NCBI GenBank assembly: GCA_963841385.1
Contig: CAWJCO010000006.1
Location: forward strand, 48,883 to 112,882
Length of the DNA: 64,000 nucleotides
Direction: 5' to 3'
DNA from: an uncultured Chloroflexia bacterium
GTDB taxonomy: Bacteria; Chloroflexota; Dormibacteria; Aeolococcales; Aeolococcaceae
Shown here piece by piece: positions 19,068-32,702 of the stretch; position 1 is the stretch's first letter, and each line of letters opens with the position of its first letter. The notes beneath the pieces are model-generated. The model worked only from the letters and a program-made list of their open reading frames with translations, was not told the origin of the DNA and did no database searches. Position numbers and translations under genes: made by a program.

Positions 19068-20398
19068 CCCTGCAGCTCCGATCCCCGTCCCCCGAGGAGT
19101 GGCGAGCCCAGGTGCGCGCCGAGCGGCGGAGCGCGGAGCCGGTCCTCGACGCCGAGACGGCCGGCCCGCTGGGTGCGTGGTTCGAGCTCCCCGTGACCGC
19201 CATCCGGGTGGTCCGCACCATCCTCGGGGAGGTCGCCCGCGAGGGTGACCCGGCGGTGCGGCGCTGGACGCTGAGGCTCGACCGGGTCGATGTCGCGGAG
19301 ACGCGGGTCCCCGCCGAGGCCCTGGCCCATGCCTGGGACGAGACCGACCCGGTCACCCGCGACGCGATCGCCGCCGCCGCCGCCCGCATCCGGGCCATCC
19401 ACGAGCCGCAGCGGGAGACCGCCATCCGGGGCATTGCCACCGCCCACCTCCGGCCCCTGCCGCTGCGCCGGGTCGGCTGCTACGTGCCCGGAGGGCGCGC
19501 CGCCTATCCCAGCACCGTGCTGATGAACGTGATTCCCGCCCAGATCGCCGGGGTTGCCGAGATCGCGCTGGTCTCGCCGCCAGGTGCGGGCGGCTCGGTC
19601 CACCCGCTGGTCCTCGCCAGCGCGCATCACCTCGGGGTGAGCGAGGTCCACGCCGTCGGCGGCGCCCAGGCGATCGCCGCTCTCGGCTACGGCACCGAGG
19701 CCATCGCCCGGGTGGACAAGATCACCGGGCCGGGGAACCTCTTCGTCACCCTGGCCAAGCGCGAGGTCTTCGGCGAGGTGGGGATCGACGGCGTGGCCGG
19801 GCCGAGCGAGATCGTGGTGATCGCCTCCGCCGACGCCGATCCCCGGCTGGTGGCCGCCGACCTGGTCTCCCAACTGGAGCACGACCCGCTGGCCTGGGCC
19901 GTCTGCCTCACCGACTCGCCCGCCCTGGCCGGCGCGGTGGGGGAGGCCTTCTCCACCGAGGCGGGGGTGGCGGCGCGCGGGGGGATCATCGCCGCCGCAG
20001 CCGGGCGCCACGGGGCGGTGATCGTCACCGAGACCCTGGAGGCGGCGGTGCGGCTCGCCGACGAGTTCGCCCCCGAGCACCTCTCCCTCCAGGGCCAGGC
20101 CGCCGAGGCGCTCCGTGACCGCCCCCACACCGCGTCGGCGGTCTTCGTCGGTCCGCGCTCGCCGGTGTCGATGGGCGACTATGTCGCCGGTCCCAACCAC
20201 ACCCTGCCCACCGGCGGTGCCGCCCGCCACCGCGGGCCGCTCTCGGTGATGGACTTCCAGCGCTGGCAATCGGTGGTGGAGCTCTCGGCCGGGGAGTTCG
20301 ACAGCCTGGCCCCGGTCGCCTGCGCCCTCGCCGAAGCCGAGGGACTGCGTGGCCACGAACGGGCGATCCGGCTCAGGATGGAGGATGGTGACCGATGA
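19064..20398 (+). CDS. hisD: Histidinol dehydrogenase
   Basis: YVPGGRAAYPSTVLM, GGAQAIAAL, GPGN, AGPSE, EH, APEHL, GDYVAGPNHTLPT. Confidence 0.95.
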   Translation: MTLQLRSPSPEEWRAQVRAERRSAEPVLDAETAGPLGAWFELPVTAIRVVRTILGEVAREGDPAVRRWTLRLDRVDVAETRVPAEALAHAWDETDPVTRDAIAAAAARIRAIHEPQRETAIRGIATAHLRPLPLRRVGCYVPGGRAAYPSTVLMNVIPAQIAGVAEIALVSPPGAGGSVHPLVLASAHHLGVSEVHAVGGAQAIAALGYGTEAIARVDKITGPGNLFVTLAKREVFGEVGIDGVAGPSEIVVIASADADPRLVAADLVSQLEHDPLAWAVCLTDSPALAGAVGEAFSTEAGVAARGGIIAAAAGRHGAVIVTETLEAAVRLADEFAPEHLSLQGQAAEALRDRPHTASAVFVGPRSPVSMGDYVAGPNHTLPTGGAARHRGPLSVMDFQRWQSVVELSAGEFDSLAPVACALAEAEGLRGHERAIRLRMEDGDR

Positions 20399-21003
20399 GT
20401 GAGAGCCCTTCCCAACCGGCGCCGCGCCGGACCTCAGCCGAGGAGCGGGTCACCAAGGAGACGCGGATCCAGGTCGAGGTCGATCTCGATGGCGGCGGCA
20501 GCCCCGACATCGAGGTCCCGCTGCCCTTCTTCCGTCACATGCTGGAATCATTCGTCAAGTACAGCGGCATGGACGTCCGCCTCCACGGCTCCGGCGACAT
20601 CGATGTGGACGCCCACCACCTGGTCGAGGACTGCGGGCTCGCGCTGGGGGCGGCGATCAGCCGCGCGCTCGGCGACCGCGCCGGGATCCGGCGCTTCGGT
20701 CACGCCTATGCGCCCCTCGACGAGTCCCTGGTCCGCTGCGTGCTCGACTACTCGAACCGGGCCCACCTGGAGTGGGAGATGAAGGCGCTCACCGGCCGGA
20801 TCAACGACTTCGACGTCACCGTCCTCCACGAGTTCGTGCAGGCTCTGTCCCAATCAGCGGGGATCAGCATCCACGTCGACCTGATCCGGGGCACCAACCT
20901 GCACCATGTGGCCGAGGCCGCCTTCAAGGCGCTGGGACTGGCCACCCGGGAGGCGGTGGCGGTGGTGGGACGTGGGGTGCCGTCGACCAAGGGGGTGCTC
21001 TGA
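20395..21003 (+). CDS. hisB: Imidazoleglycerol-phosphate dehydratase
   Basis: TKET, DAHHLVEDCG, PLDES, NLHHVAEAAFKA, PSTKGVL. Confidence 0.95.
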   Translation: MSESPSQPAPRRTSAEERVTKETRIQVEVDLDGGGSPDIEVPLPFFRHMLESFVKYSGMDVRLHGSGDIDVDAHHLVEDCGLALGAAISRALGDRAGIRRFGHAYAPLDESLVRCVLDYSNRAHLEWEMKALTGRINDFDVTVLHEFVQALSQSAGISIHVDLIRGTNLHHVAEAAFKALGLATREAVAVVGRGVPSTKGVL

Positions 21004-21150
21004 TGCCCCGCGCCGGGCGGGCGCCGCGCCGCTGCGCGAGCGCGGTCTGATGTCCCGGCGCAGGAGCGGCACCCGGCGCCCCCGGGAGGGCGCGGGCTGA
21101 TGCCCCGGGACGGGCGTGGCGCTCTGGGCCGTCTCGAGGGCGTGGCCTGA
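21003..21150 (+). other. Chain of three TGATG-coupled mini-ORFs (15, 16, 16 aa)
   Basis: 21003-21050 MPRAGRAPRRCASAV; 21050-21100 MSRRRSGTRRPREGAG; 21100-21150 MPRDGRGALGRLEGVA; each junction is CTGATG. Confidence 0.6.
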
Positions 21151-21797
21151 TGCCGAGGGTGGCGATCGTCGACTACGGGGTGGGCAACCTGCGCAGCGTC
21201 GAGCGGGCGCTGGCGCGCGCCGGAGCCGGCGCCGTCATCACCCCCGATCCGGGGGTGGTCGCGGCCTGCGACGCGGTGGTGCTCCCGGGGGTCGGCGCCT
21301 TCGCCCCGGCGGCGGCGCTCCTGCTCGGCTCCGGGCTCGGCGACGCGGTCCGGGAGGCGGCGGGGCGCGGCCGCCCGGTGCTCGGCGTCTGCCTCGGCTT
21401 CCAGCTCCTCTTCGAGGCCAGCGAGGAGGGCGAGGGGGGCGAGGGACTCGGTCTGCTTCCCGGACGGGTGCGCCGGATCGACGCCGCCCCGCCGCTCAAG
21501 GTGCCCCACATGGGGTGGAACCGGCTCCGGATGCACCGGCCGTCGACACTCACCGCCGGGGTCGCCGAGGGGGCCTGGTGCTACTTCGTCCACTCCTACG
21601 CCGCCGACGCCGACCCCCGGGACGTGGTCGCCACCGTCGACCACGGCGGCGAGATCGTGGCCATCTGCGAGCGGGGGACGGTGACCGGGACCCAGTTCCA
21701 CCCCGAGAAGAGCGGGCCCGCCGGGCTGCGCATCTACGCCAACCTGGTCGCCGCCTGCGCCGGCGCGCCCACCCCGGCTCAGACGGTGCTTCGGTGA
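21150..21797 (+). CDS. hisH: IGP synthase glutaminase subunit
   Basis: DYGVGNL, LPGVGAF, GVCLGFQ, PHMGWN, YFVHSY, QFHPEKS. Confidence 0.95.
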   Translation: MPRVAIVDYGVGNLRSVERALARAGAGAVITPDPGVVAACDAVVLPGVGAFAPAAALLLGSGLGDAVREAAGRGRPVLGVCLGFQLLFEASEEGEGGEGLGLLPGRVRRIDAAPPLKVPHMGWNRLRMHRPSTLTAGVAEGAWCYFVHSYAADADPRDVVATVDHGGEIVAICERGTVTGTQFHPEKSGPAGLRIYANLVAACAGAPTPAQTVLR

Positions 21798-22519
21798 TCG
21801 TCATCCCCGCCATCGACATCCGGGGAGGCCGGTGCGTCCGCCTCATCCAGGGGGACTTCGCCCGCGAGCACGTCTACGAGGACGACCCCGCGGCGGTGGC
21901 CCGCCGGCTCGGCGAGAGCGGCGCCCACCGCATCCACCTGGTGGACCTCGACGCGGCCCGGGGCATGATCGATCTCGCCTCCACCACCGCCGCCCGGCGC
22001 GTCCTCGAGAGCGCTCAGGAGGCGGGCGTGGAGGTCGAGGTCGGTGGGGGCGTCCGCACCCTGGCGGTGGCGGAGCGCTGGCTGGCGGCCGGGGCGGCCT
22101 TCGTCGTCCTCGGGAGCGTGGCCGTGCGCGAGCCGGAGGCCGCAGCGGCGATCTGCGCTGCGCTGCCCGGGCGCTGCCTGGTCGCCCTCGACGTGCGCGG
22201 CGACACGGCCCAGGCCGAGGGCTGGACCGAGGGCGCAGGCAGCGCCATCGCTCACCTGGAGCGGTGGGCGAGCTGGCCCCTGGCCGGGCTGGTGCGCACC
22301 GACGTGGCCCTCGACGGGATGCTGACGGGCCCCGACCTCGCCGGTCTCGAACAGACGGTGCGGGCGTTCCCCGGGCCGGTGATCGCGAGCGGCGGCATCA
22401 GCACCGTCGACGACATCGTCCGCTGCGCCGAGGCGGGCGCGGCCGGCGCGATCGTGGGCCGGGCCCTCTACGAGGGCAGCTTCGACCTGCGCGCCGCGAT
22501 CCTCCGGTTTTCCCGATGA
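21794..22519 (+). CDS. hisA: ProFAR isomerase
   Basis: IPAIDIRGGRCVRL, HLVDLD, GGGVR, DGMLTGPD, ASGGI, GRALYEG. Confidence 0.93.
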   Translation: MIVIPAIDIRGGRCVRLIQGDFAREHVYEDDPAAVARRLGESGAHRIHLVDLDAARGMIDLASTTAARRVLESAQEAGVEVEVGGGVRTLAVAERWLAAGAAFVVLGSVAVREPEAAAAICAALPGRCLVALDVRGDTAQAEGWTEGAGSAIAHLERWASWPLAGLVRTDVALDGMLTGPDLAGLEQTVRAFPGPVIASGGISTVDDIVRCAEAGAAGAIVGRALYEGSFDLRAAILRFSR

Positions 22520-22587
22520 GTCCGGGCGGCTCTCCCCGCGATGACTCGGGCCGGTTTCCCCCCATGAACCCGGGATCGCGACCGTGA
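22516..22587 (+). other. Bridging mini-ORF (23 aa), hisA to hisF
   Basis: ATG 22516 overlaps the hisA TGA; TGA 22585-22587 overlaps hisF GTG 22584; [23 protein letters not shown]. Confidence 0.5.
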
Positions 22588-23342
22588 GCCTGACCAAGCG
22601 GATCATCCCCTGTCTGGACGTGGACCGCGGGCGGGTGGTCAAGGGTGTCAACTTCGTCAACATCCGCGATGCCGGTGACCCCGCCGAGCTGGCTGCGCGC
22701 TACGACGCCGAGTCCGCCGACGAGCTGGTCTTCCTCGACATCACCGCGAGCAGCGAGGATCGCGACATCCTGCTCGAGGCGGTGCGGCGCACCGCCGACT
22801 CGGTCTTCATCCCGCTCACCGTCGGGGGCGGGTTGCGCGGCCTTGAGGACATCGATCGCATGCTCCGCAGCGGCGCCGACAAGGTGTCGCTCAACACCGC
22901 GGCGCTGGACCGCCCCGACCTCATCGGCGAGGCGGCCGAGCGCTTCGGTGTCCAGTGCGTGGTGGTCGCCATCGATGCCCGCCGCGACGGCGCCGGCTGG
23001 CACGTCTTCTCCCACGGCGGCCGCCGCGACACCGGTCGGGATGCCATCGACTGGGCGCGGGAGGCGGCCGATCGTGGCGCCGGTGAGATCCTGCTCACCA
23101 GCATGGATCGGGACGGCACCCAGGACGGCTACGACCTCCAGCTCACCCGGGCGGTCGGCGACCGCCTCACCATCCCCGTGATCGCGAGCGGCGGGGCCGG
23201 CGAGCCCGAGCACCTGAGGGCGGTGCTCAGCGAGGGCGGTGCCGACGCCGCCCTGGCGGCCTCCATCTTCCACGACGGCGTCCACTCCATCCCCCAGACC
23301 AAGGCCTACCTGCGCGACCACGGCGTCGAGGTGCGGCTGTGA
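22584..23342 (+). CDS. hisF: IGP synthase cyclase subunit
   Basis: [36 protein letters not shown]. Confidence 0.96.
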
Positions 23343-23788
23343 GCCCGGACCGCGACATCTCCCGCGACACCTCCCGCGACACCTCCCGCGACAACCCCCA
23401 CGACCCCTCTTCGGAGCCCCACCTCCCCCTCCGCGCGCAGCCCGAGGGCCGCACGCCCGACCTCGGCCGGGGTCTGATCACCGCGGTCGTACAGGACGCC
23501 ACCACCCGCGAGGTGCTGATGGTCGCCCACATGGACTACGACGCCTACGAGGCCACCCTCGCCACCGGGCGAGCCACCTTCTGGAGCCGGAGCCGGCAGC
23601 GCCGCTGGGAGAAGGGGGAGACGAGCGGCAACACCATGCACGTCGTCGAGGCGCGGCTGGACTGCGACGGTGACGCCGTGCTCCTGCTGGTCGAGCCGGC
23701 CGGCCCGGCCTGCCACACCGGGGCTCCCACCTGCTTCACCGCGCCATCTCCCGACGCCGCCACCATCGGAGGGGACGGCGAGTGGTGA
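23339..23788 (+). CDS. hisI: Phosphoribosyl-AMP cyclohydrolase (no HisE fusion)
   Basis: VQD...EVLM, FWSRSR, KGETSGN, DCDGD, ACHTG..CF. Confidence 0.92.
23351..23410 (+). repeat. 12-bp tandem repeat (CGCGACACCTCC) x4-5 encoding SRDT in HisI N-terminus
   Basis: Direct reading: units at 23351, 23363, 23375, 23387 and a degenerate one at 23399. Confidence 0.85.
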
Positions 23789-23841
23789 CCCGCGATCAGC
23801 CTCGGGCCCGCGCCCGTCGCGACCCGGACCGCGCCCGATGA
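23785..23841 (+). other. Bridging mini-ORF (18 aa), hisI to GH15
   Basis: GTG 23785 overlaps the hisI TGA; TGA 23839-23841 overlaps ATG 23838. Confidence 0.5.
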
Positions 23842-28671: not shown

Positions 28672-29534
28672 CGACACCGACCGAGACCATGGAGGAGCGG
28701 ATTCGCCGGGCCGAGGTCCTGGTCGAGGCGCTCCCCTACATCCGCCGCTTCTCCGGGCACACCCTGGTGATCAAGCTGGGTGGCGCGGCGATGGGGGAGG
28801 ACGTCGACGCCTTCCTGCAGGACGTGGTGCTCCTCCGCTTCGTGGGGATGCGCCCGGTGCTGGTCCACGGCGGCGGTCCGGAGATCTCGCTCTGGCAGAA
28901 GCGACTGGGCCTCGAGCCTCGCTTCGTCAACGGGCTGAGGGTCACCGACGGACCCACCATGGAGGTGGTGAAGATGGTGCTCACCGGCAAGATCGGTCCC
29001 GAGCTGGTGGCTCGCATCCACAAGCTGGGGGGCCAGGCGGTGGGGATGAGCGGCGAGGACGGCCCCACCTTGATGGTCCGGCCCCGTGGCACCGAGGGCG
29101 GCCATGACCTCGGCTTCGTCGGTGAGGTCGACCAGGTCAACGCCGAGCCGGTCGAGGCGGTGCTCGACCAGGGCCGCATCCCGGTGATCGCCTCCATCGG
29201 GCTGGGCGTCGACGGCGACGCCTACAACGTCAACGCCGACACCGTGGCCGCCGAGCTGGCGGTCGCCCTCAGGGCGACCAAGATGGTCCTGCTCACCGAC
29301 GTCGAGGGGGTGCGCGGCGCGGACGGCGAGCTGGTCAGCGTGCTCGATGCCCCCACCGCCGACCGGCTCATCGAGAGCGGCGCCATCAGCGGGGGCATGA
29401 TCCCCAAGGTGCGTGCGGCGCTGCGCGCCCTCGACGCGGCCACCGCCTCGCACATCATCGACGGCCGCGTTCCCCACTCGCTGCTGCTCGAGCTGCTCAC
29501 CGAGAGGGGAGTCGGCACCATGGTCACGCGGTGA
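28668..29534 (+). CDS. argB: Acetylglutamate kinase
   Basis: IKLGGAAM, VHGGGPEI, GLRVTD, NVNADT, GGMIPKV, DGRVPH. Confidence 0.95.
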   Translation: MTTPTETMEERIRRAEVLVEALPYIRRFSGHTLVIKLGGAAMGEDVDAFLQDVVLLRFVGMRPVLVHGGGPEISLWQKRLGLEPRFVNGLRVTDGPTMEVVKMVLTGKIGPELVARIHKLGGQAVGMSGEDGPTLMVRPRGTEGGHDLGFVGEVDQVNAEPVEAVLDQGRIPVIASIGLGVDGDAYNVNADTVAAELAVALRATKMVLLTDVEGVRGADGELVSVLDAPTADRLIESGAISGGMIPKVRAALRALDAATASHIIDGRVPHSLLLELLTERGVGTMVTR

Positions 29535-29638
29535 GGCGTCGCGTCGCGCCGCCGACCGGCCCCGCGGTTGTCCGCGGTAACCCGGTGAGCCACTCGACCC
29601 CGCCGATCAGCTCCGCGCCGTCCGCGGTGACCAGATGA
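29531..29638 (+). other. Bridging mini-ORF (35 aa), argB to argD
   Basis: GTG 29531 overlaps the argB TGA; TGA 29636-29638 overlaps ATG 29635; begins VRRRV. Confidence 0.5.
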
Positions 29639-30855: not shown

Positions 30856-31397
30856 ACATCGGCTCGGCTCTCGGTCCGGTTGCCAAGGCGGAGCGGCAGC
30901 AGGCCATCCTCGACCTGATCCGCGACCGCAAGGTCCGGACCCAGGAGGAGATCGTGGCGGCGCTCCGCCACCGCAGCCTCGACGTCACCCAGGCGACCGT
31001 CTCGCGCGACATCCGCGAGCTGGGCCTGGCCAGGATCCACGATCCCGACGGCCCGCGCTACGTCGCCGGCGGCGACCCCGACGAGCCGTCACCGGTGAGC
31101 ACCCGGCTCCGCGCGGTCATGCGCGAGCACGTCCGCTCCATGGAGTTCGTGGACCATATCGGGGTCGTCCACACCCGTCCCAGCAGCGCGCCGCTGGTGG
31201 CGGCGGTCATCGACTTCGCTCACTTCGAGGAGGTCGCCGGCACCGTCGCGGGCGACGACACCGTCCTGGTGGTGGTCCGCTCGCGACCCGGCGCACGCCG
31301 GCTGGCCGAACGGCTCCGCGCGGCCGCCGGCGGAGGGCCTGCGGCAGCCCGCGCCCACGATGCCAACCAGATGAGCGGTCACGGAGGAGTCCGGTGA
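30852..31397 (+). CDS. argR: Arginine repressor
   Basis: RQQAILDLI, TQEE, TQATVSRDIRELG, GTVAGDDT. Confidence 0.93.
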   Translation: MNIGSALGPVAKAERQQAILDLIRDRKVRTQEEIVAALRHRSLDVTQATVSRDIRELGLARIHDPDGPRYVAGGDPDEPSPVSTRLRAVMREHVRSMEFVDHIGVVHTRPSSAPLVAAVIDFAHFEEVAGTVAGDDTVLVVVRSRPGARRLAERLRAAAGGGPAAARAHDANQMSGHGGVR

Positions 31398-31428
31398 GCA
31401 AGTCCATGAGCGGTCGCGGAGGATTCCG

Positions 31429-31440
<12 letters not shown>
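31371..31440 (+). repeat. 35-bp tandem duplication of the argR/argG junction, creating mini-ORF 31394-31432
   Basis: ATGAGCGGTCACGGAGGAGTCCGGTGAGCAAGTCC followed by ATGAGCGGTCGCGGAGGATTCCGGTGAGCAAACCC. Confidence 0.85.
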
Positions 31441-32678
<1,238 letters not shown>

Positions 32679-32679
<1 letters not shown>

Positions 32680-32702
32680 TGGCCCGCGGCAGGCAGCGCT
32701 GA
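32679..32702 (+). other. Bridging mini-ORF MARGRQR, argG to argH
   Basis: TGATG overlaps at both ends; the motif GCGC..TGATGGC is duplicated at 23-nt spacing. Confidence 0.55.

Follow-up and report, generated by a model that had tools for sequence, protein, structure and literature searches.

Tandem copies of the hisB/hisH junction as a candidate termination-reinitiation relay in an uncultured Candidatus Dormibacteria bacterium

The classic pairs of genes linked by termination-reinitiation are trpE-trpD and trpB-trpA of Escherichia coli, and the his operon of enterobacteria possesses, in hisL, a leader-peptide attenuator. Mycobacterial interspersed repetitive units (MIRUs) underlie MIRU-variable number tandem repeat typing. 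The work to turn to for MIRUs is reportedly that of Supply et al. 1997 (Mol Microbiol 26:991). Two later publications describe MIRUs as tandem intergenic units of 40-100 bp in mycobacterial operons, with small open reading frames (ORFs) that overlap the flanking stop and start codons, and report that they are thought to preserve coupling to the downstream gene (PMC12548453; PMC3184786). They put the family at about 41 loci in Mycobacterium tuberculosis and present it as thought to be mobile, inserting at start codons, with direct repeats (PMC12548453; PMC3184786). Short ribosome-delivering ORFs and MIRUs coupled to a downstream gene have been described (PMC12548453), and Huber et al. 2019 found that termination-reinitiation strictly couples 13 of 14 tested overlapping gene pairs (PMC6728339). 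Here, we analyze the spacer between hisB and hisH in a stretch of 64,000 nucleotides (nt), referred to as the window, from an uncultured soil bacterium of the Candidatus Dormibacteria. This spacer is occupied by three consecutive mini-ORFs, which are degenerate copies of the junction between the two genes and which may pass ribosomes from hisB to hisH.

The source assembly comprises 2.18 Mb in 6 contigs and is only 68% complete. The publicly recorded names of nearly identical HisH proteins assign it to Candidatus Dormibacteria. The GC content is 71% for the genome and 73% for the window, in which the his genes are arranged in the order hisG-hisD-hisB-hisH-hisA-hisF-hisI. The gap between the hisB stop and the hisH start measures 146 nt and is spanned by mini-ORFs of 15, 16, and 16 codons, termed here units 1 to 3 (U1 to U3). 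CTGATG is found at 21001, 21048, 21098, and 21148 (the position given being that of the T), resulting in spacings of 47, 50, and 50 nt, and every ATG in the chain shares its A with the preceding TGA. The units start with ATGCCC, ATGTCC, and ATGCCC and end with GCGAGCGCGGTCTGATG, GGGAGGGCGCGGGCTGATG, and CGAGGGCGTGGCCTGATG, respectively. A preliminary description of this DNA had noted the three CTGATG-linked mini-ORFs together with their coordinates, peptides, spacings, and start and end motifs, all of which are correct by sequence. The relatives analyzed below amounted to 28 lineages, namely, 16 species genomes from the genus, of which 13 have units and 3 have none, and 12 metagenome contigs with close HisH variants; where necessary, they are designated by handles of the type G001 or L141. 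The features of the spacer and its two flanking genes are the following:

20395-21003, + strand: hisB (imidazoleglycerol-phosphate dehydratase), the TGA of which, at 21001-21003, shares its A with the ATG of the first mini-ORF
20989-20995, + strand: AAGGGGG, the Shine-Dalgarno (SD)-like site of the ancestral coupled junction, within the last hisB codons (..TKGVL, then stop)
21001-21005, + strand: junction J0, TGATG, hisB stop/U1 start, read from the sequence
21003-21050, + strand: unit 1 mini-ORF, 15 codons, MPRAGRAPRRCASAV, type 'a' (nhmmer unit profile, E=0.0054)
21048-21052, + strand: junction J1, TGATG, U1 stop/U2 start, with no SD upstream (duplex -2.7)
21050-21100, + strand: unit 2 mini-ORF, 16 codons, MSRRRSGTRRPREGAG, type 'b', with GGGAGGG at 21084-21090
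21098-21102, + strand: junction J2, TGATG, U2 stop/U3 start, likewise read from the sequence
21100-21150, + strand: unit 3 mini-ORF, 16 codons, MPRDGRGALGRLEGVA, a second 'a'-type unit (nhmmer, E=7e-5), with GAGGG at 21136-21140
21148-21152, + strand: junction J3, TGATG, U3 stop/hisH start; TGAATG in G001, L182, and L183
21150-21797, + strand: hisH (glutamine amidotransferase subunit of imidazoleglycerol-phosphate synthase), the stop of which overlaps the hisA GTG start (GTGA, 21794-21797)

The three-unit chain exceeds chance. Among 50,000 versions of the 146-nt gap obtained by dinucleotide shuffling, a relay of three mini-ORFs with ATG starts only arose at a frequency of 6e-5, and the frequency was 6.6e-4 when GTG and TTG starts were permitted. 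The density of TGATG was 0.94 per kb per strand. When short in-frame links from one TGATG to the next were traced through the 2.18-Mb genome, three in succession occurred only in the spacer, and a chain of two was found once. The three unit interiors were significantly similar to one another, with 29 to 31 of 45 bases identical (P from 0.009 to <0.0005). Tandem Repeats Finder at score 30 detected no repeat in the spacer, because the units are too diverged. Searches with an nhmmer unit profile and with blastn-short revealed no further unit copies in the assembly, which covers 68% of the genome. A dispersed repeat, such as a MITE (a miniature inverted-repeat transposable element) or a repetitive extragenic palindrome (REP), was considered and rejected, as the fold was no better than that of shuffles, covariation was absent, and no other copies were present in the assembly.

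The number of units was 0, 1, 2, or 3 among the 28 lineages. The identity of the orthologous hisB genes was assessed with the Pfam family IGPD, and tblastn was also used; a metagenome scan with HisH as the query returned only distant homologues (at most 63% identity), which were of no use for the spacer. No units, but a direct TGATG or TAATG overlap, were found in G010, G005, G015, G022, and L144 to L147, and a GTGA overlap without units was present in L149 and L150. Genomes of neighboring genera, which were also compared at the hisB-hisH junction, likewise showed zero units, with a direct TGATG or TAATG overlap or with GTGA. One unit was seen in G006. Two units were observed in ten genomes and L143 (47+47 nt) and in L142 (50+50 nt), whereas three were present in the genome of the window, in G001, and in L182/L183. 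Remodelled arrays were found in L148 (30 + 22 codons) and L184 (29 codons); the array of G003 showed a change of +3 nt, and that of L141 had the length of three units.

A tree based on the DNA of hisB, hisH, and hisA placed the unit-bearing lineages in two fully supported clades (A and B), with the zero-unit lineages outside, except L147. The position of the zero-unit taxa outside the unit-bearing clades indicates that the direct overlap is ancestral. L147 was sister to the two-unit G003 (support 100/99) and has therefore lost the array, that is, both units, precisely. Two observations concern individual arrays. In G006, on contigs C17 (end) and C188 (start) (loci L046 and L049), the hisB-hisH array coincides exactly with a break in the assembly, which, with a single unit at the contig end, may reflect copy-number heterogeneity in the sampled population. 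In L184 (positions 1-311 of JGI contig Ga0209415_10180466), an ORF with a LacI-family match lies upstream of the 29-codon relay ORF and hisH; it ends in the last 12 HisB residues (..GRGVPSTKGVL, then stop), which would correspond to either a junction-keeping rearrangement or a chimeric assembly.

As to the source of the units, the spacer consists of degenerate 47- to 50-nt tandem copies of the hisB/hisH junction itself. We compared the units, in ungapped register, with a pseudo-unit composed of the first 24 nt of hisH and the last 24 nt of hisB. For clade-B unit 1, 25 of 42 interior bases were identical (genome null 13.7 ± 3.1; P=3e-4), and for unit 2, 22 of 42 (P=0.005). This match to the local junction, along with the lack of other copies in the assembly, shows the spacer to be a local minisatellite that originated by tandem duplication of the junction. 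The SD-like AAGGGGG at the hisB end, which has an anti-SD duplex of -12.7 kcal/mol and is kept in all relatives, recurs in each unit as GAGG or GGGAGGG. Unit 1 has its orthologue in the U1 of clade A. By eye, unit 3 is nearly identical to clade-B unit 1 over the first ~25 bases of each, and its end resembles the hisB end; the array of the window thus reads a-b-a. This origin by junction duplication is a point on which our analysis goes beyond the preliminary description, as is the identification of MIRUs as the known analogue.

We then turn to selection, for which substitutions were counted as parsimony steps on the tree, with 10 to 13 ungapped lineages scored at the junctions. The unit interiors accumulated 1.87 steps per site, as compared to 1.39 at the third codon positions of hisB, hisH, and hisA in the same taxa. 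The steps at the three codon positions of the mini-ORFs were 2.0/1.64/1.21 and 1.5/1.79/1.29, versus 0.2/0.05/1.35 in hisB. There was thus no third-position excess of substitutions in the mini-ORF frame, the reverse of the hisB pattern, and the peptides are therefore not conserved; their sequences are unconstrained. Only 13% of the interior columns were invariant, and this proportion was 0 among the 7 interior columns with an A/T majority. No substitution, on the other hand, was recorded in the main lineage set at the internal TGATG or, in the outer junctions, at the relay-only TG bases, an invariance with a P of about 4e-5 when 5 columns are considered and of 1e-8 with 9 columns.

At the individual junctions, J0 was found in all unit-bearing relatives, in the form of TGAATG in L148 and L184. 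J1 had zero substitutions and was TGATG in every lineage with at least two units, whereas J2 was retained in G001, L182, and L183 and has decayed to CGGACG in L141. The junction variants retain the adjacency of stop and start: this holds for TAATG in G010 and for TGAATG in G001, L148, and L184, the TGAATG of G001 having been seen in two independent samples. Since these variants maintain adjacency but alter the motif, they argue for a translational reading and not for a binding site. Furthermore, the remodelled arrays of L148, L184, L142, and G003 still form a continuous chain. The preliminary description had observed that the interiors diverged while the overlaps were kept, and the step counts, the lack of codon periodicity, and the invariance of the internal TGATG agree with it. 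Purifying selection on the internal junctions, apparently for an unbroken stop/start chain and not for peptides, is well supported by this comparison of sequences, and it lends indirect support to a dependence of hisH translation on that of the upstream ORFs.

The same process of junction duplication is seen at four other junctions of the clade, hisA-hisF, argR-argG, argG-argH, and purQ-purL, each of which is bridged exactly. Between hisA and hisF (22516-22587), a 23-codon mini-ORF bridges the genes, with ATGA/GTGA at both ends. This junction was ancestrally a direct ATGA, and mini-ORFs of 7, 15, 23, and 41 codons occur in six genomes, in gaps of 16, 40, 64, and 118 nt, all of which are 1 mod 3. 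The argR-argG junction is a direct GGTGAGC overlap in 10 genomes; at 31394-31432, it contains a 35-nt tandem junction copy (GGAGGAnTCCGGTGAGCAA twice) that gives a 12-codon ORF and is found only in G000 and G001, whereas G013 has two copies (36+35) that are read as one 24-codon ORF. The argG-argH junction is a direct cgcTGATGgc in most genomes of the genus. At 32679-32702, a 23-nt junction copy (CGCTGATGGC twice) generates a 7-codon ORF; this copy is common to G000, G001, and G013, with a diverged interior and the TGATG kept; G014 and the other genomes of the genus lack it. Outside the window, at purQ-purL (contig C5:189530-189630), ccGTGAgcgcc precedes three further copies of cgccNGGTGAGCG, at +34, +35, and +32 (sum 101, or 2 mod 3), and one 34-codon ORF bridges the genes.

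Several further junctions in the window were recorded. The hisI stop (GTGA) is connected by an 18-codon mini-ORF (23785-23841) with a GH15-like gene, whose ATG lies at 23838 (ATGA), and a 35-codon ORF (29531-29638) bridges argB and argD via GTGA and ATGA overlaps. In the hisI product, a short peptide is repeated in tandem at the N terminus (23339-23420), implying that the DNA contains a 12-nt repeat immediately behind the GTGA overlap of hisF and hisI. Upstream of the array, hisD directly adjoins hisB at 20395-20398 through an ATGA overlap, with no hisC between them. The usual order in many high-GC Gram-positive bacteria is hisD-hisC-hisB.

We consider it probable that the spacer is a junction-derived minisatellite that acts as a serial termination-reinitiation relay feeding hisH, in which case the mini-ORFs would be translated and hisH would depend on them. 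An ancestral overlapping stop/start junction (hisB ..GTGCTCTGATGCCCCGG.. hisH) was duplicated in tandem, each unit of ~47 nt corresponding to the first ~24 nt of hisH and the last ~24 nt of hisB. As 47 is 2 mod 3 and joins the native hisH and hisB frames, each copy is automatically a 15-codon ORF that runs from the former start to the former stop, with its ATG within the preceding TGA and its TGA within the following ATG. According to this proposal, ribosomes that end hisB would reinitiate at U1, then at U2 and U3, and lastly at hisH. Over the 146 nt of RNA, which is very rich in GC and poor in SD sites, the relay would thus maintain the translational coupling of hisB to hisH and to the hisA-F-I genes that follow, and the peptides would be by-products. 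Because the loss of any junction by mutation would uncouple hisH, purifying selection would hold TGATG in place, whereas the interiors would be free to drift. The number of units may shift between 0 and 3 when the repeated junctions recombine unequally or slip.

The initiation signals were also inspected. Genome-wide, the use of SD sequences was weak, the core 4-mer being present at 38% of genes versus 20% at random positions. All clade-A U2 starts were without an SD (duplex of -2.2 to -3.1 kcal/mol), and the same applied to the hisH start in G002 (-2.4 kcal/mol) and L148 (-2.5). The predicted fold of the spacer RNA was -115 kcal/mol over 191 nt. Weak SD use, relay starts devoid of an SD, and a stable predicted fold would fit reinitiation by terminating ribosomes.

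A number of observations weigh against such a relay. In L141, a contig of 1.9 Mb, the U2/U3 junction decayed from CTGATG to CGGACG and a 1-nt insertion is present, so that hisH, itself intact, is traversed by the U2 ORF in another frame. Its sister G014 shows a +1 frame change, and its 51-nt unit is fused in frame to hisH; this unit looks like a deletion derivative in which the U2 start was joined to the U3 end. L147 deleted the whole array, and at least 10 lineages are without any units (eight with TGATG/TAATG and two contigs with a GTGA overlap). The relay is thus dispensable in some lineages. In the window genome, the U3 start is preceded by GGGAGGG and the hisH start by GAGGG, in each case at a distance of 10 nt, and these SD-like sites could drive independent initiation. 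The argument from frame preservation (period of 2 mod 3) is weak by itself, because a +1 change merely fuses neighboring ORFs and two of the three phases keep continuity. All relatives are metagenome-assembled genomes or metagenome contigs, and single-base indels may consequently be assembly errors. Finally, the two junction substitutions on the short branch of L141, versus none elsewhere, fit relaxed constraint after the break but amount to one event.

The preliminary description had proposed that selection acts on coupling and not on sequence, and had named frame-breaking indels in relatives with normal hisH expression as evidence to the contrary. The constraint on the stop/start chain supports the proposal, but the relay could be dispensed with in L141, G014, and L147. 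Indels of this kind do exist in part, in that L141 lost frame and junction with hisH intact, and G014 underwent the +1 fusion.

Genome-wide figures also call for caution; they rest on our own, crude gene calls. Direct stop/start overlaps were present in 372 of 1289 same-strand neighboring gene pairs, and intergenic gaps of 8-150 nt were enriched for lengths of 1 mod 3 (274 versus 184 and 153). Gaps bridged exactly numbered 80, as compared to 59 ± 3.4 in shuffles and 51 ± 5.3 in gap swaps. Chance bridging is frequent because TGA dominates among the stops and GTGA counts as a start. Duplications with a period of 0 mod 3 are read as N-terminal extensions and hence lie outside the reach of this survey. 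The genome-wide enrichment of relays is real but modest and should not be over-read. The preliminary description viewed hisB-hisH as the strongest example of a relay pattern; hisB-hisH is the only triple chain in the genome, and the wider pattern is common by chance (80 versus 51-59).

Such frequent chance bridging, the broken relay of L141 next to an intact hisH, the precise loss in L147, and the many zero-unit lineages would be expected if the units were tolerated leftovers, that is, neutral slippage products, with hisH using an SD and an ATG of its own and the mini-ORFs playing no role, translated or not. An SD-like GAGG ~10 nt before hisH in most lineages is also in line with this explanation. 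We nevertheless regard it as unlikely, since the A/T-rich internal TGATG remained unsubstituted in a genome of 71% GC in which the interiors changed at 1.87 steps per site (P from 4e-5 to 1e-8), since G002 and L148 have no SD before hisH, and since the remodelled arrays of L148, L184, and L142 retain an unbroken chain. A different possibility is that ribosomes are lost at each reinitiation step, in which case the number of units would set the ratio of HisB to HisH-A-F-I and slippage would provide heritable and reversible tuning. The presence of 0 to 3 units in close relatives, the gains, precise loss, and swaps (a-b, b-b, a-b-a), and the assembly break of G006 exactly at the array are compatible with such a copy-number dial. 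However, neutral minisatellite dynamics under a continuity constraint predict the same variation. We consider it rather improbable as it stands; moreover, it would add to the serial relay and not replace it.

The repeated, conserved hexamer and the very stable predicted RNA could point to a structured RNA or to a protein-binding element that recognizes the repeated CUGAUG, and translation of the spacer might, alternatively, shield the transcript from Rho-dependent polarity. However, the stability of the fold was no better than that of shuffles (z=-1.07), and the covariation term of RNAalifold was +0.84, with no supported helices, on which grounds the RNA element was rejected. A search against Rfam gave no match in the spacer and only a chance match inside hisH (asR3, E=0.47). 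A binding site is contradicted by the TAATG and TGAATG variants, which break the motif and keep stop/start adjacency. The RNA-binding domain of Rho, PF07497, was absent from all 16 genomes of the genus (0/16, versus 9/14 control genomes), which makes protection from Rho polarity unlikely. Altogether, we judge this group of explanations to be very improbable. The probability that we assign to functional micropeptides or to a leader-peptide attenuator that senses amino acids is close to negligible. The ORFs are open, start with ATG, and encode Arg-rich peptides; but their content of Arg, Gly, Ala, and Pro is what sequence of 80-90% GC yields, and codon-position periodicity is lacking, as is any conservation of peptide sequence between clades. 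A conserved functional small protein was rejected, as there was no signal of purifying selection on the amino-acid sequence. The attenuator was equally rejected: the three units of the window contain no His codons and those of relatives at most single ones, no His codon runs and no terminator/antiterminator are present, and the array lies inside the operon. A scan of 20300-21900 for promoters and terminators identified no promoter-like or terminator-like site. The conclusion of the preliminary description that this is not a classic his attenuator is thus upheld by the lack of His codons, the position, and the absence of a detectable terminator.

The locus constitutes a natural experiment on serial termination-reinitiation, with ~20 related versions of one junction that carry 0 to 3 relay ORFs and include remodelled, fused, broken, and precisely deleted arrays. 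It has a quantitative signature, frozen junctions and neutrally drifting interiors, and shows a route by which intercistronic spacers arise from overlapping junctions without uncoupling the operon. It also supplies ready constructs for determining the efficiency of reinitiation per step. For genome annotation, it serves as a warning against taking such gaps for empty sequence or for genes of micropeptides. More tentatively, and with a good deal more doubt than confidence, we suggest that in high-GC, SD-poor, and apparently Rho-less bacteria DNA added between coupled genes may need to be a translated relay. Minisatellites of this type might act as reversible 'resistor ladders' that lower the flow to hisH-A-F-I relative to hisB, slippage might retune the stoichiometry on short evolutionary time scales, and MIRUs might be a mobilised descendant.

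In comparison with the systems described so far, the hisL attenuator shares with the present locus the association of small ORFs with the his operon. It differs in that the units contain no His codon run and no terminator/antiterminator pair and are located between hisB and hisH, not ahead of the operon. The short upstream ORFs of mycobacteria and synthetic bicistronic designs (PMC12548453) are closer, since a short ORF serves to hand on the ribosome and to melt local RNA structure, as proposed here; these ORFs, however, are single and located at the 5' end of the transcript, whereas those described here lie inside an operon, are threefold, and derive from junction duplication. Gene pairs linked by termination-reinitiation through TGATG or ATGA have the same overlap motif, the co-directional operon context, and a variable or absent contribution of the SD. 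Stop/start overlap or abutment of co-directional ORFs, which characterizes them, is read at hisB-hisH as well. In those pairs, two real genes are joined directly, whereas here three serial steps would proceed via ORFs with unconstrained products.

The closest resemblance is to MIRUs. Both are direct tandem repeats of about 40-100 bp (here 47, 50, and 50 nt) inside an operon of a high-GC bacterium, and in both the ORF of the unit is co-directional with its neighbors and overlaps stop and start codons at its ends (here TGATG at all four junctions). In both, the copy number varies between close relatives (here 0-3 among the 28 lineages), and the proposed effect is that the downstream gene is kept translationally coupled. 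However, MIRUs form one scattered sequence family, whereas the units described here are confined, within the assembly, to one locus and derive from the local hisB end and hisH start, other junctions in this genome carry their own, unrelated junction copies, and the host, Candidatus Dormibacteria, belongs to another phylum than Mycobacterium. The locus suggests that, outside mycobacteria, MIRU-like repeats have a local origin. Judged by its architecture against the described features of MIRUs, the spacer would work like a MIRU array but is no member of the MIRU family.

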